DNA of 64,000 nt from Escherichia coli (GCF_003334405.1 NZ_QOWM01000005.1), one strand, 5' to 3'. Shown: positions 28,255 to 33,649, counted from the first letter of the stretch. Notes: a model not told the origin generated them from the sequence alone. A program made the numbers and translations.

Positions 28255-29451
28255 TTACAGAAATGGTAAAGAAGACATAACTCCCCGTGAAATACTGGCT
28301 AAGAAGCCTTTATCTGGTTGTTCTTCTTTATTGATTAAAGGAAGGTCATCCAAATCGCCCAGCAAATACGTATTTTTTGCCTGCCAGTCAATCATCCATA
28401 TTTTCAGCAGTGGGTAAGCCAGACCACCCGTAATCCCGGATATCACCACCAACGCACACATGCGATAAAGCATACCGTGGTACGTTAAAGTTGAGCGAAA
28501 ACGAATACGCCCATCATTCAGTGACAGGTTGCTCATAAAATGATTTCGCAACGACACCGTTAAATAACTGGTGCTAACAGCAATCCCAAAATAATAGATT
28601 AACTGCGCGATTATCATTTTACGCTGCATTTCCATAAATTGCTGTAAATTCTCAATGTCATCATTTGCATATACAGAACTATCATACGCATTTAATATTT
28701 GATCGAAGATAATATAACCAGCAACAGCGAGAAAAGGCAATAAAGCTAAAAATGCGAGAATGGCATATTTTATACAATACGTAGTATCTAAATTCACCTT
28801 GAAACGATGTATACCGAAACTGGTATTGCTCCAGAGAAAACTCATTACCAGACTATATAAAGTACCATTAAAAATACCAATGGAAACAATACCAACTATT
28901 GCCATCAGAACCATGGATATAATAACACTACTTGAACTATTGGCAGGTAGCATCTTTGTCGAGATAAAGAAAACAGTCCCCATCCCAATGGCCATTAAAA
29001 TCGGCAAGAAAAAGGTCACCCACCAGAACCCTTTCATAGAGCAATTAAAACTAAATCTTACGCCGTTGAGACTGGTCATTAAGGCCTGATGACGCAGTCC
29101 TTTTGCTGCCATAAATATAAGCAAAACCAACAGTAACAAAGTCAAAACACAACCAACAAGCGGCATATCTGCTGACACTGTCATTAAGATTGCGAAATAG
29201 AAAAAAACAAAAAAAAGACAACTAACAAAAACATTCCCACCGGTAATTCCATAAGAAAATCGTTGTCCGTTAACTTCCATATTAGCATAAAGATAACGCT
29301 TACATTTCATTAATGCCCATGGTAAATAGATACCTAGCGTTATAATCGTTAACAACACATTCACCACGCAAATAAGAAAATATCTCTCACCTGTACCATG
29401 AAAAACAAACGAATGGGACGGAACATCCATTTCATTAATAACTTGAGCCAT
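28255..29451 (-). CDS. yjgN: DUF898-family inner membrane protein
   Basis: Hydrophobic ORF; start taken at MAQVINEMDV; AT-rich. Confidence 0.85.
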   Translation of the reverse strand: MAQVINEMDVPSHSFVFHGTGERYFLICVVNVLLTIITLGIYLPWALMKCKRYLYANMEVNGQRFSYGITGGNVFVSCLFFVFFYFAILMTVSADMPLVGCVLTLLLLVLLIFMAAKGLRHQALMTSLNGVRFSFNCSMKGFWWVTFFLPILMAIGMGTVFFISTKMLPANSSSSVIISMVLMAIVGIVSIGIFNGTLYSLVMSFLWSNTSFGIHRFKVNLDTTYCIKYAILAFLALLPFLAVAGYIIFDQILNAYDSSVYANDDIENLQQFMEMQRKMIIAQLIYYFGIAVSTSYLTVSLRNHFMSNLSLNDGRIRFRSTLTYHGMLYRMCALVVISGITGGLAYPLLKIWMIDWQAKNTYLLGDLDDLPLINKEEQPDKGFLASISRGVMSSLPFL

Positions 29452-29643
29452 AAAAGTTCCCTGAATTAAAAAATCCATTGATATAACTTATATATACAGA
29501 CAGTAAAATGTTCTGCCACGTTACAATACTCTTATCAGTAATAGGCTGGCAAAAACTTTATTACTTTATAAGTCGCTTGCGTACGTAAGAAGAGAGTGGT
29601 ATTAAACAAATGTATAATTACTTTATTTTTATTGGGTTAAACT

Positions 29644-30147
29644 ATGAATAACATTGCGCCGCAATCACCTGTAATGCGTCGCCTGACGCTGCAGGATAAT
29701 CCTGCTATCGCCCGCGTCATTCGTCAGGTATCCGCCGAATACGGTCTTACCGCTGATAAAGGCTACACCGTCGCCGATCCGAATCTTGACGAGCTGTATC
29801 AAGTGTATAGTCAGCCTGGCCATGCATATTGGGTCGTTGAGTACGAGGGTGAAGTGGTCGGCGGCGGTGGGATAGCGCCATTAACCGGGAGTGAGTCGGA
29901 TATTTGCGAACTGCAAAAGATGTATTTTCTTCCAGCTATCCGCGGCAAAGGGCTGGCAAAAAAACTGGCCTTAATGGCGATGGAGCAGGCGCGAGAGATG
30001 GGTTTCAAACGCTGCTATCTGGAAACGACCGCTTTTTTAAAGGAAGCCATTGCGCTTTATGAGCATTTGGGCTTTGAGCATATCGACTATGCGCTTGGCT
30101 GCACGGGCCATGTCGATTGTGAAGTGCGGATGTTGCGCGAACTCTAA
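29644..30147 (+). CDS. yjgM: GNAT-family acetyltransferase
   Basis: 167-aa ORF at the conserved K-12 position between yjgN and rraB. Confidence 0.85.
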
Positions 30148-30204
30148 AAAAATGCCCGCGTGTTCACACTCGCGGGCATTCGAACATTAACAACGTACGT
30201 TTTG

Positions 30205-30290
30205 TTTATGCCGGATGTGACATGAATGCCTTATCCGGGCTACAAATTCACCAGGTTGCAGGAACTACCTGGGCCTGATGCGCTACGCTT
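30205..30290. repeat. REP element
   Basis: GCCGGATGTGACATGAATGCCTTATCCGGGCTACA and CCTGGGCCTGATGCGCTACGCTTA palindromic units. Confidence 0.7.
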
Positions 30291-30292
30291 AA

Positions 30293-30845: not shown

Positions 30846-30870
30846 GAGGCGTTAGCCACAGGAGGGATCT

Positions 30871-31875
30871 ATGTCCGGGTTTTATCATAAGCATTTCCTG
30901 AAATTACTCGATTTCACGCCAGCTGAACTTAACAGCCTGCTGCAGTTAGCCGCGAAGCTGAAAGCCGATAAGAAAAGCGGTAAAGAAGAAGCCAAACTCA
31001 CTGGTAAAAACATCGCGCTCATCTTCGAAAAAGACTCGACTCGTACCCGATGCTCTTTCGAAGTTGCCGCATATGACCAGGGTGCTCGCGTTACTTATCT
31101 CGGCCCAAGCGGCAGCCAGATTGGTCATAAAGAGTCGATTAAAGACACTGCCCGCGTGCTTGGTCGCATGTATGACGGTATTCAGTATCGCGGCTATGGT
31201 CAGGAGATTGTCGAAACACTGGCGGAATACGCTGGCGTGCCGGTATGGAACGGCCTGACCAATGAGTTTCACCCCACGCAGCTTCTGGCGGATCTCCTCA
31301 CCATGCAGGAGCATTTGCCCGGCAAAGCGTTCAACGAAATGACGCTGGTTTATGCAGGTGACGCGCGTAACAATATGGGCAATTCGATGCTCGAAGCTGC
31401 GGCGCTTACCGGTCTGGATTTGCGTCTGGTCGCGCCGCAGGCATGCTGGCCGGAAGCTGCGCTGGTTACGGAATGCCGCGCCCTGGCACAGCAAAATGGT
31501 GGGAATATTACGCTGACAGAAGATGTCGCGAAGGGAGTTGAAGGTGCTGACTTTATCTATACCGATGTGTGGGTGTCGATGGGGGAAGCAAAAGAGAAAT
31601 GGGCGGAACGGATTGCATTGCTGCGTGAATATCAGGTGAACAGCAAGATGATGCAGTTGACCGGTAACCCGGAGGTCAAATTCCTCCACTGCCTGCCCGC
31701 GTTTCATGACGACCAAACGACGCTTGGTAAGAAAATGGCGGAAGAGTTTGGCCTACATGGCGGAATGGAAGTTACTGATGAGGTCTTCGAATCTGCCGCC
31801 AGCATTGTTTTTGATCAGGCGGAAAACCGCATGCATACCATCAAAGCGGTGATGGTCGCGACGCTCAGTGAATAA
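30871..31875 (+). CDS. argI: Ornithine carbamoyltransferase
   Basis: 334-aa ORF with STRTR and HCLP motifs. Confidence 0.95.
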
Positions 31876-31889
31876 TTGATATTGCTATA

Positions 31890-31930
31890 AAGATGCCGGG
31901 AAATACAAACCATCCCGGCATCACATTATT
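31890..31930. terminator. Bidirectional terminator between argI and yjgL
   Basis: Hairpin GATGCCGGG...CCCGGCATC followed by a T-rich run. Confidence 0.5.
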
Positions 31931-33649
31931 TTATGCAGTGATAGGTTTATTATTCCAGCCAAATTTTTCTATTGCTATACGTAAATTTTCCGGTGGATTT
32001 AGTTTATTTAAACGCTGTTCATTAATATATGGTAATACATTAACTCTCGATTGCAAGATAGTTTGCATCATTCTAAACCTAAGTTTTAATTCATTATTAA
32101 TTTTTTCATTAATAACATCATTTGGTTGATTTTTCATAATCTCATCATTAGACTCTTTATTATTAAAATCATACCCTAACTTATCAAAATAAATCTTTTC
32201 ACCCTCATAGCCATTAAGTAACTGAGGGAAATACCAATTAATCATCTCAGGACTTTTCATAAAAAAATCCTTCAGAAAAATATCATTTACTAAAATGCTG
32301 ACAGGCACTTTATTAAATACAGACTCAACATTATTAAATATCCTTTGTATTAAATATGTTTTTTCTCGATTGCTTAAGTTAAAATCATTGACATATACAA
32401 CCAACTTATTCCAAATCAACCCCTGTAATTCAGGGCTATTTTTATAGGGTTCTTTATCGAGATTGAAAAATAATGCCTCAGCTATTTTAGACTGATCGCT
32501 GCGAAGATTAATATGATTTATTACGGAGCATGCATGCTTTATCTTTTTTGTATCATCAGAATATTGCATGCTTTTATTAAAGCACCACTCCAGTATTCTT
32601 ACATCATAAATATATGGGAATTTTAAAAAAGTCTCCAGCATCGAATCGATGACCGGTGTAAGGTTAACCTTTGCATCATCTAAGGAATCAATAAGAATAT
32701 GAGACAGGTTAATCATGATGTCATTAATTTCATTGTTACCTTTTTTGTCATTATCAATTCCGTGATCATTTGATTCGTAGAGCTTATCTATTTCTTCAAG
32801 TATACCATTTTCGCCCAGTAAGTATGAAATCGATTCATCACATACATGAGGCATTAATAGCAGATGTTCGTTCCTTATTGCTAATAAGGCTTTATTCAAT
32901 GCTTTTTCTAATAAATCCGTAATCGTAGAATCAACTGAACCTTTACAACTCACCTGCGAGTTATTTAAGTCCTGAGAATTATTTAACTCCTGCGGTTCAT
33001 TTAACTCCTGTGGACTATTTAACTCCTGCGGATCATTTAACTCCTGCGGATTATTTAACTCCTGCGAATTATTTAACTCCTGCGGATTATTTAACTTCTG
33101 TAGATTATTTAACTTCTGTATATTATTTAACCTCTGTAGATTATTTAACTTCTGTAGATTATTTAACTTCTGATGATTATTTAATAGACGCGCTATTTCC
33201 TTGTTAGCTTCGCGTTGGTAACACGCCAGAACCTTGTTAGTAATAAGGTGTAATGAACTATCATCTTTTCTTTCAAAAGACTTCCCTTCATAACGATTAG
33301 TCGAACCATCAGATTGTTTAAATATAATGACTGTATGTCCTTCACGAATCCCTTTAGTAGAAGCTGAGGCAAGTGTAATTTCTATCTTCACCTTAGATAA
33401 ACCCGCTCGCTCCCCTTCAGGATTATTCATGTAAAACTTCATTTTTTCATTGCCATCAGTATCTTTAGAATAAGATGAGGACTCAATATGAGCCATCATA
33501 TTTCTACCCGCTTCGTTGGAGCGTTTGCTAAAATCCACATAACCCAGGGTAAATATCTTTGCCAAAAACTCCAAAAATGCTCTAGGAGAAAGAATATTGC
33601 TTCTGCTATTCTGCCCCCCGGCAATTCGGGCAAAATCATTCATTCCCAC
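31931..33649 (-). CDS. yjgL: YjgL-like protein with internal pentapeptide tandem repeats
   Basis: 572-aa AT-rich ORF containing repeated LNNLQK/(P/S)QELNN units. Confidence 0.8.
   Translation of the reverse strand: MGMNDFARIAGGQNSRSNILSPRAFLEFLAKIFTLGYVDFSKRSNEAGRNMMAHIESSSYSKDTDGNEKMKFYMNNPEGERAGLSKVKIEITLASASTKGIREGHTVIIFKQSDGSTNRYEGKSFERKDDSSLHLITNKVLACYQREANKEIARLLNNHQKLNNLQKLNNLQRLNNIQKLNNLQKLNNPQELNNSQELNNPQELNDPQELNSPQELNEPQELNNSQDLNNSQVSCKGSVDSTITDLLEKALNKALLAIRNEHLLLMPHVCDESISYLLGENGILEEIDKLYESNDHGIDNDKKGNNEINDIMINLSHILIDSLDDAKVNLTPVIDSMLETFLKFPYIYDVRILEWCFNKSMQYSDDTKKIKHACSVINHINLRSDQSKIAEALFFNLDKEPYKNSPELQGLIWNKLVVYVNDFNLSNREKTYLIQRIFNNVESVFNKVPVSILVNDIFLKDFFMKSPEMINWYFPQLLNGYEGEKIYFDKLGYDFNNKESNDEIMKNQPNDVINEKINNELKLRFRMMQTILQSRVNVLPYINEQRLNKLNPPENLRIAIEKFGWNNKPITA
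32950..33185. repeat. Intragenic 15-bp tandem repeat array (about 15 copies) within yjgL
   Basis: Period-15 repeats of ATTATTTAACTCCTG with point variants on the plus strand. Confidence 0.85.

Follow-up and report, generated by a model that had tools for sequence, protein, structure and literature searches.

Probable separate horizontal origins of yjgN and yjgL (icaR), two AT-rich genes flanking a conserved Escherichia coli gene core

The genes yjgN and yjgL form two AT-rich patches in a 64,000-nt stretch of Escherichia coli DNA (GCF_003334405.1, NZ_QOWM01000005.1; in its full length hereafter the window), within a segment whose order, from the open reading frame (ORF) map and annotated genomes, is pepA-holC-valS-yjgN-yjgM-rraB-argI-yjgL-tabA-bdcR-bdcA-yjgH-pyrLBI. 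Here we report that the two genes are most probably independent xenogeneic pieces in a housekeeping neighbourhood, yjgL being a decaying copy of the gene already described as icaR and yjgN a xenologous replacement. The two AT-rich islands lie at the variable edges of a conserved three-gene core, yjgM-rraB-argI, and they have separate histories.

A sequence-only reading of this DNA had proposed horizontal acquisition from composition judged by eye, and for both genes the support now extends beyond composition. The position held by yjgL is empty in outgroups, the gene has no full-length relative outside Escherichia, and the literature classes it as foreign; for yjgN, gene tree and species tree conflict, and alleles 41% identical alternate between sharp breakpoints. 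Both genes combine an AT content above that of the genome, atypical codon use and a restricted or incongruent distribution, the recognized marks of xenogeneic DNA.

Results

Base composition of the locus

The housekeeping genes of the window are 97-100% identical to those of K-12, and the window is ordinary E. coli chromosome and not that of a divergent species; its mean GC is 0.491. Computed composition agrees with the earlier impression that yjgN and yjgL are AT-rich relative to their neighbours, but it divides the single AT-rich span once drawn from 28255 to 33649 into two islands, with about 2.4 kb of normal-GC sequence (yjgM, rraB and argI) between them. GC is 0.372 in yjgN (28255-29478, minus strand) and 0.328 in yjgL (31931-33649, minus strand), against 0.550 in valS, 0.520 in yjgM, 0.523 in argI, 0.500 in tabA and 0.534 in pyrB; across valS, yjgM, rraB, argI, tabA and pyrB the range is 0.49-0.55. 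In a 500-nt sliding profile of GC, a first trough opens at the valS stop (0.56 to 0.35-0.39) and closes at 29500, and a second opens at the argI stop (0.55 to 0.27-0.35) and closes by 33750, the edges of both coinciding with gene ends.

A ranking of 47 long ORFs from the window places the two genes second and fourth from the bottom in GC and third and fourth from the bottom in codon adaptation index (0.173 and 0.200 versus a median of 0.32, with the weights of Sharp and Li). On a naive binomial expectation of 52% GC, the deficits of yjgN and yjgL amount to about 10 and 16 standard deviations, respectively. Promoter-like (sigma-70-like) sites are concentrated in the same places, with 12 of the 17 found within a 12-kb stretch falling in the two AT-rich islands.

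yjgL and its promoter

Situated between tabA and argI and convergent with argI (ORF map and K-12 annotation), yjgL is the gene that two papers of 2022 identified as icaR (Silue and Campbell-Valois, PMC9241512; Hall et al., PMC9769918), and its story is already published. The features of the gene and its promoter are as follows.

31931..33739, minus strand: yjgL (= icaR) frame, 602 codons, GC about 33%, broken at codon 29 on translation
33653..33655, minus strand: premature amber codon, TAG for TGG (Trp29), from alignment with strain 18KM2445
32953..33184, minus strand: tandem repeat in yjgL, period 18, 12.9 copies, 87% matches, in frame
33740..33861, minus strand: yjgL promoter and 5' untranslated region, Shine-Dalgarno AAGGAG at 33750-33745, nucleotide diversity 0.018 versus 0.06-0.23 in the gene
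33798..33814, minus strand: MxiE box AGAGCGTTTTTTGATAT, exact match, ending 58 nt upstream of the yjgL ATG

Aligned with strain 18KM2445, which has the closest genome, yjgL is seen to start at the ATG at 33739, preceded by AAGGAG. The start previously placed at 33649 is a GTG two codons past the amber stop, a mere restart, and the ORF that opens there is not the gene. Over 1,815 aligned positions yjgL is 92.0% identical in nucleotides to the K-12 copy, and it reaches 97.5-98.4% identity to the closest alleles. Trp29 is invariant in 18 diverse alleles and is encoded by TGG in every allele compared; here the frame is interrupted by TAG at this codon and then stays open for 572 codons. An 81-nt segment around the amber codon, found at one place per genome, has no exact match in 5,426 complete E. 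coli genomes, the best match being 98.8% with one mismatch, and from these comparisons the amber stop would be either private to this strain or a sequencing error. As sequenced, yjgL reads as a pseudogene in this strain and should be annotated as such. Translation would end after 28 residues, and a restart at Val31 or Met33 would give a product lacking the secretion signal. That N-terminal signal, residues 1-22, is the same here as in the other alleles, with one of the 18 differing at residue 7.

The exact AGAGCGTTTTTTGATAT match in the promoter compares with 0.02 expected by chance, and the same box, also 58 nt from the start, is listed for Shigella flexneri yjgL in Table S2 of PMC9769918. 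The general MxiE consensus GTATCGTTTTTTTANAG, from which the icaR box differs at five positions, finds no match in the yjgL promoter within 3 mismatches. In Shigella, icaR is induced by MxiE with IpgC via the MxiE box (PMC9241512), the MxiE-dependent induction of yjgL being 66-fold (PMC9769918), and IcaR is a substrate of the type III apparatus, its N-terminus directing secretion (PMC9241512). The K-12 and O157 copies respond to ectopic MxiE/IpgC and not to EivF/YgeG, the homologues from ETT2, and no expression was seen in the absence of MxiE/IpgC; the same authors noted a GC content of about 35% and suggested a possible fossil gene (PMC9241512).

In K-12, yjgL carries a 660-bp "promoter island" that is bound by H-NS in all ChIP-chip datasets, and the gene was predicted to be foreign by several methods (Panyukov and Ozoline 2013, PMC3661553); an earlier study reported no yjgL homologues outside E. 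coli and Shigella (PMC2575891). Together these sources class yjgL as foreign and H-NS-bound (PMC3661553, PMC2575891, PMC9241512). Our own scan of the sequence for the high-affinity H-NS motif TCGATAAATT gave 8 matches versus 6.4 expected and is uninformative.

The tandem repeat array that the sequence-only reading had noticed in yjgL is present at the position listed above and encodes L-N-N-x-Q-[KE] hexapeptides. Tandem Repeats Finder counts 12.9 copies in the window, 12.4 in K-12, 9.9 in an O157 strain and 2.9 in a B strain, and the 18 alleles range from about 2 to 14 units. With an 18-bp unit inside the yjgL frame and a copy number polymorphic in these four strains, the repeat appears to be VNTR-34 (Vhec2, TR6), a marker of E. 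coli O157 in multiple-locus variable-number tandem repeat analysis, given in Table 1 of PMC3321953. Hidden paralogues were considered as a source of the several places per genome matched by the yjgL query; these matches are attributed to the repeat aligning in multiple registers, because the unique 81-nt segment hit one place per genome.

We also considered, and found unsupported, membership of YjgL in the SopA family. Residues 342-407 show a marginal, partial match to the first half of the SopA central domain PF13981, at an i-Evalue of 1.4e-4 (22.7 bits, model 2-69 of 127). Pfam gave no match in YjgL to PF13979 (SopA_C), the HECT-like catalytic C-terminal domain, and a search of PDB sequences with the YjgL profile returned nothing at E up to 1. 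No protein of SopA or NleL length occurs among the 77 YjgL profile matches, all of which are YjgL itself or fragments of at most 214 amino acids, and the six fragments inspected proved to be YjgL pieces or chimaeras. The AlphaFold2 model of YjgL is poor (mean pLDDT 48); Foldseek on this model returned no SopA or NleL but generic helical repeats with TM of 0.23 or below, which we disregarded. Neither YjgL nor YjgN has a match in NCBIfam or PADLOC, and a reading of these genes as a defence system is therefore without support.

Variation and distribution of yjgL

Among eight strains, nucleotide diversity is 0.06-0.23 between the yjgL start and stop versus 0.01-0.03 in most of the flanks, and the step sits exactly at the start and stop codons. 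Nonsynonymous divergence (dN) in yjgL is 0.085 and synonymous divergence (dS) 0.143, giving a dN/dS of 0.59, compared with 0.03 in argI (dS 0.123), 0.10 in tabA and 0.24 in bdcR, where dN is 0.003-0.013. The C-terminal third is the most diverged (dN 0.129), and dN/dS climbs to 0.83 in residues 269-440 and exceeds 1 in no region of the gene. Of the five yjgL alleles sampled, two are annotated with a frameshift. These values indicate that yjgL is under relaxed constraint, and speak for neither deeper ancestry nor positive selection; older coalescence or balancing selection as the source of the diversity is ruled out by a dS close to that of argI. The 3' part of argI (31315-31715) has a diversity of 0.037-0.046, about twice that of the 5' part, which would fit linkage to divergent yjgL haplotypes or recombination breakpoints inside argI.

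The label "core", which the sequence-only reading gave to both genes, is loose for yjgL. Of the 5,426 complete genomes, 89% have a detectable yjgL, megablast finding no match in 621; coverage is at least 80% in only 58%, the gene is often frameshifted, and it is a pseudogene here. In most E. coli genomes its nucleotide identity to the window allele is 80-90%. A profile built from 18 alleles found no full-length YjgL relative outside Escherichia among 1.84 billion representative proteins, its 77 matches consisting of one full-length cluster (E. coli) and 76 fragments, one of them from E. albertii. In E. albertii, yjgL lies at the same site at 29-36% GC, split into three ORFs, and the tabA-argI junction lacks yjgL in Superficieibacter, Citrobacter sedlakii and E. 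coli strain DA33135. Taken together, the comparisons suggest that yjgL was AT-rich when it reached the Escherichia lineage and has decayed ever since.

One observation lies apart from this distribution. The start of contig CDRK01000410.1 of GCA_000936005.1 (97-474) holds a 125-residue ORF in which an ArgS-like DALR segment is fused to some 65 residues similar to YjgL 348-412, and it adjoins genes of the HAD-family hydrolase, UvrD-family helicase and CorA families, in chromosomal surroundings unlike those of yjgL. Possible origins of this ORF are the remnant of a yjgL-like gene at another place and a chimaera made in assembly.

Two alleles of yjgN

The features of yjgN and its surroundings are as follows.

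28255..29451, minus strand: yjgN coding sequence, 398 amino acids, K-12-type allele, DUF898 inner-membrane protein, GC 37.4%
28205..29690, strand not applicable: allelic cassette, a poorly alignable block between the valS stop and a point ~45 nt into yjgM
28221..28246, both strands: two-way terminator-like hairpin between the convergent valS and yjgN, 11-pair stem with 7 G-C pairs
29452..29643, strand not applicable: yjgN/yjgM divergent promoter spacer, AT-rich, with 29% GC over 29479-29643
29552-29523, minus strand: promoter-like site TTGCCA-18-TATTGT in the yjgN/yjgM spacer

An in-frame ATG upstream at 29478 gave the 407-residue ORF reported earlier; homologues and RefSeq annotation favour the start at 29451 and a protein of 398 residues. 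YjgN matches Pfam DUF898 (PF05987) with an E value of 8.5e-46 over residues 13-369 (model 2-315 of 336). The gene is 99% identical in nucleotides to that of K-12, its dN/dS across seven strains is 0.18, and the K-12-type yjgN is intact, under purifying selection and probably functional. The AlphaFold2 model (pLDDT 84.7, pTM 0.80) shows long helical hairpins alternating with beta-hairpins, from which YjgN is predicted to be a polytopic helical membrane protein of four repeats, each a beta-hairpin plus a transmembrane helical hairpin. In a genomic SELEX table, HNS is noted for the yjgM/yjgN spacer, and the hexamers given for the yjgN promoter are those of the site at 29552-29523 (PMC3946193).

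The taxonomic distribution of YjgN was built from protein searches and contig look-ups. A DUF898 gene stands between valS and yjgM in E. albertii, Superficieibacter, C. sedlakii and Phytobacter massiliensis as well, at 41.5-54% GC versus 37% in the window. The nearest known relative of the K-12-type gene is in Superficieibacter: YjgN of the window is 65.6% identical to that copy and 41.5% identical to the E. albertii copy, whereas ValS runs the other way, with 99.3% identity to E. albertii and 95.3% to Superficieibacter. E. coli DA33135 carries a yjgN allele (41.7% GC) for a protein of 395 residues, which shares 41.3% identity with YjgN of the window and 85% with that of E. albertii. In 50-nt windows, identity to DA33135 goes from 0.92-0.98 to 0.34-0.74 within the block listed above and to 0.86-0.98 after 29687, and the yjgM-rraB-argI segment of that strain is 92% identical to the window. 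By megablast, the window type (at least 95% identity) occurs in 4,630 genomes and the other type in 796, which sum to all 5,426, and "core" is again a loose term, the window allele being held by 85% of complete genomes and the other by 15%. The pattern points to in-place replacement in a slot occupied across genera, with no insertion.

Three further observations concern this slot and its surroundings. Phytobacter (Metakosakonia) massiliensis has two tandem DUF898 genes between valS and yjgM (7001-9582), 36% identical to each other, and more than one version can therefore coexist at the slot in one genome. In DA33135 (9936-15875, versus 33862-36362 in the window), a tabA-like gene (84% identical in amino acids, 75% in nucleotides) followed by arcA-arcC-argF-yfcC-argR-like genes takes the place of yjgL-tabA-bdcR-bdcA-yjgH, an arrangement as in Superficieibacter and Citrobacter; judged from the yjgN allele counts, about one in seven E. 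coli genomes may carry such an alternative right-hand haplotype, and, because the arrangement matches those two genera, bdcR-bdcA-yjgH may also be later arrivals. A genome-contig search with YjgN found only the 301-nt contig00369 of Caballeronia mineralivorans, covering YjgN residues 4-102 at 99% identity to E. coli, which in this Burkholderiaceae assembly is almost certainly E. coli contamination.

Other features of the window

A larger second AT-rich block (1109-12581) adjoins the tRNA-Leu(CAA) gene leuX (12497-12581) and contains the following.

11029-12297: integrase
9170-10819: dptF, phosphorothioation-dependent restriction gene, GC 40-45% as for the next two
7840-9165: dptG
2796-7859: dptH
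1109-2799: two very AT-rich ORFs, GC 29-33%, one with a weak PtuA/ABC-ATPase-like N-terminus

The block looks like a defence island, and no dnd modification genes were seen in the part of it that was examined. Within the conserved core, the yjgM-rraB spacer (30148-30292) is 145 nt long here and about the same in K-12 and 18KM2445, whereas O157, B, JJ1887 and AST240 have only 45 nt. A REP-like palindrome, GCCGGATGTGACATGAATGCCTTATCCGGGCTAC, lies in the additional stretch, which forms a good fold (z -3.1), accounts for a local peak in diversity and probably represents a REP/BIME insertion that is polymorphic.

Discussion

Origin of the two genes

In the history that we favour, yjgL, an orphan gene restricted to Escherichia, would have arrived at the tabA-argI site before the lineages of E. 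coli and E. albertii separated, since it is present at the same site in both. Its promoter, as the literature shows, fires only with the Shigella plasmid activators MxiE and IpgC, and the product is then type III-secreted. In E. coli without the Shigella plasmid the gene would be kept silent (H-NS binding is known for K-12) and would drift under relaxed constraint, with amino-acid changes, expansion and contraction of the repeat by slippage, and frameshifts as the likely signs of that drift. The E. albertii-like yjgN allele, still resident in 15% of E. coli, would be the older one, replaced in most of the species by an AT-richer xenologue, presumably through homologous recombination in the flanks. 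The AT-richness of both genes would then reflect the composition of their donors and not the needs of their proteins.

An alternative without any transfer, in which the two genes are native and owe their AT-richness to relaxed selection and a general G:C-to-A:T mutation bias acting at their present sites, seems to us improbable. It draws on the relaxed constraint on yjgL, on the ancestral slot that yjgN shares with several genera, and on the stepwise fall in GC of the gene in that slot, from 48-54% in other genera through 41.5% in E. albertii to 37% in E. coli. However, a synonymous divergence within E. coli of 0.143, much like the 0.123 of argI, is far too little to have moved yjgL from about 51% to 33% GC; the E. 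albertii copy is already at 29-36%, no relatives of native GC are found, and the junction is empty in outgroups. As for yjgN, the window allele is under purifying selection (dN/dS 0.18), its protein is closer to that of Superficieibacter than to that of E. albertii or the other E. coli type, and the change is limited to a block with sharp edges. It is less credible still, to the point of being very nearly dismissed, that the proteins themselves (one a Phe/Ile/Leu-rich membrane protein, the other an Asn/Lys-rich repeat protein) impose the AT-richness, which would then be uninformative on origin. GC at the first and second codon positions is low too (0.40 and 0.35 in yjgN, 0.41 and 0.26 in yjgL), FYMINK residues make up 35% of YjgN, and the YjgL repeats encode Asn-rich hexapeptides. 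Yet third positions, on which the protein places little constraint, are equally AT-rich, with a GC of 0.365 in yjgN and 0.311 in yjgL against 0.48-0.65 in the neighbouring genes and 0.57-0.72 in the DUF898 genes at the same position in other genera, and the non-coding spacers adjoining yjgN and yjgL are also only 29-32% GC.

With regard to yjgL alone, there is a slim chance that it is a working E. coli gene, an effector or regulator operating with another secretion system, whose diversity comes from diversifying selection. The conservation of the promoter, the MxiE box and the first 22 residues across alleles, a dN/dS below 1, the persistence of the gene in most genomes, the fast-changing C-terminal third with its peak of dN/dS in residues 269-440, and the weak Pfam match to the SopA central domain would all be in keeping with such a role. 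Set against this, no region has a dN/dS above 1, copies that are frameshifted, cut by insertion sequences or interrupted by nonsense codons are common (including those of PMC9241512), EivF/YgeG fail to activate the gene, which is silent without MxiE/IpgC (PMC9241512), and the SopA match is partial, marginal and unsupported by profile, PDB sequence or fold searches. Somewhat easier to entertain, though still unlikely, is that the gene is intact, either because the amber codon at 33653-33655 stems from an error of sequencing or assembly or because a suppressor tRNA reads it: a single base change from TGG to TAG suffices, it is private among the complete genomes, and the remaining frame is open. 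Nothing in the surrounding sequence points to an error, however, the site lies outside homopolymer runs, and inactivating changes are frequent at yjgL in other strains (including in PMC9241512).

Several points weigh against the two-transfer history as a whole. yjgL is not wholly neutral, its dN/dS being 0.59 and not 1, and residues 1-22 and many other columns are invariant; the promoter, too, is conserved, and some function of the gene in E. coli is possible. The evidence on H-NS comes from the literature, for yjgL on K-12, another strain, and for yjgN from a single table entry. The amber codon rests on one base, which could be a sequencing error, and the two yjgN alleles appear mutually exclusive in that their counts add up to the total of genomes. 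No donor emerged for either gene, transfer between E. coli and Superficieibacter may have run either way, and very uneven rates could mimic part of the incongruence.

For yjgL, the present analysis adds nothing new of substance to what is a textbook case of silenced foreign DNA; the dN/dS of 0.59, an amino-acid change in excess by ten-fold or more while synonymous divergence is ordinary, and the private nonsense codon back the published suggestion of a fossil gene. The dimorphism of yjgN, for which our literature search found no published description, is modest and may be undescribed. It could guide experiments on DUF898; in practice, the single gene that each genome has at this position will be divided by pan-genome pipelines between two clusters that look unrelated. 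We offer only tentatively, as a rather doubtful idea, that YjgN is the target of an antagonist, such as a phage or a contact-dependent or bacteriocin toxin needing an inner-membrane entry factor, and that both alleles, in a slot where other genera have DUF898 genes of roughly equal divergence, are kept or repeatedly exchanged by selection and not by chance; if so, this could provide a first handle on DUF898 function.

Comparison with known systems

Our observations on yjgL are consistent with the published icaR in locus (tabA-argI), nucleotide identity to K-12 (92%), MxiE box and its distance from the start, conserved N-terminus, a GC content of about 33-36%, and variation and disruption from strain to strain. 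Unlike Shigella icaR, for which truncations by insertion sequences have been described, the copy examined here has a private amber codon 29; and dN/dS, the diversity profile and the lack of a full-length relative outside Escherichia are quantified here, in distinction to the parts of PMC9241512 and PMC9769918 that we consulted. The clustering of promoter-like sites in the two AT-rich islands resembles that of H-NS-bound promoter islands, although yjgN is absent from the list in PMC3661553 and the H-NS data come from other strains. With the HECT-like E3 ligase effectors SopA and NleL, YjgL shares secretion by a type III apparatus, its possible resemblance to their central domain being partial and weak; unlike them, it lacks the catalytic C-terminal domain.

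YjgN, in turn, matches the DUF898 family strongly and over its full length, with a predicted polytopic helical fold, in a family that has no known function or solved structure and almost no literature. It differs from other members in that the E. coli allele is unusually AT-rich and coexists within the species with an allele 41% identical to it. Xenologous replacement at conserved slots is known elsewhere in E. coli, for example in the hsd and mutS-rpoS regions. The yjgN position resembles those regions in having deeply divergent alternatives at one site, conserved flanks and sharp breakpoints, and differs from them in that what is exchanged is one gene, of uncharacterised function, together with its promoter spacer.

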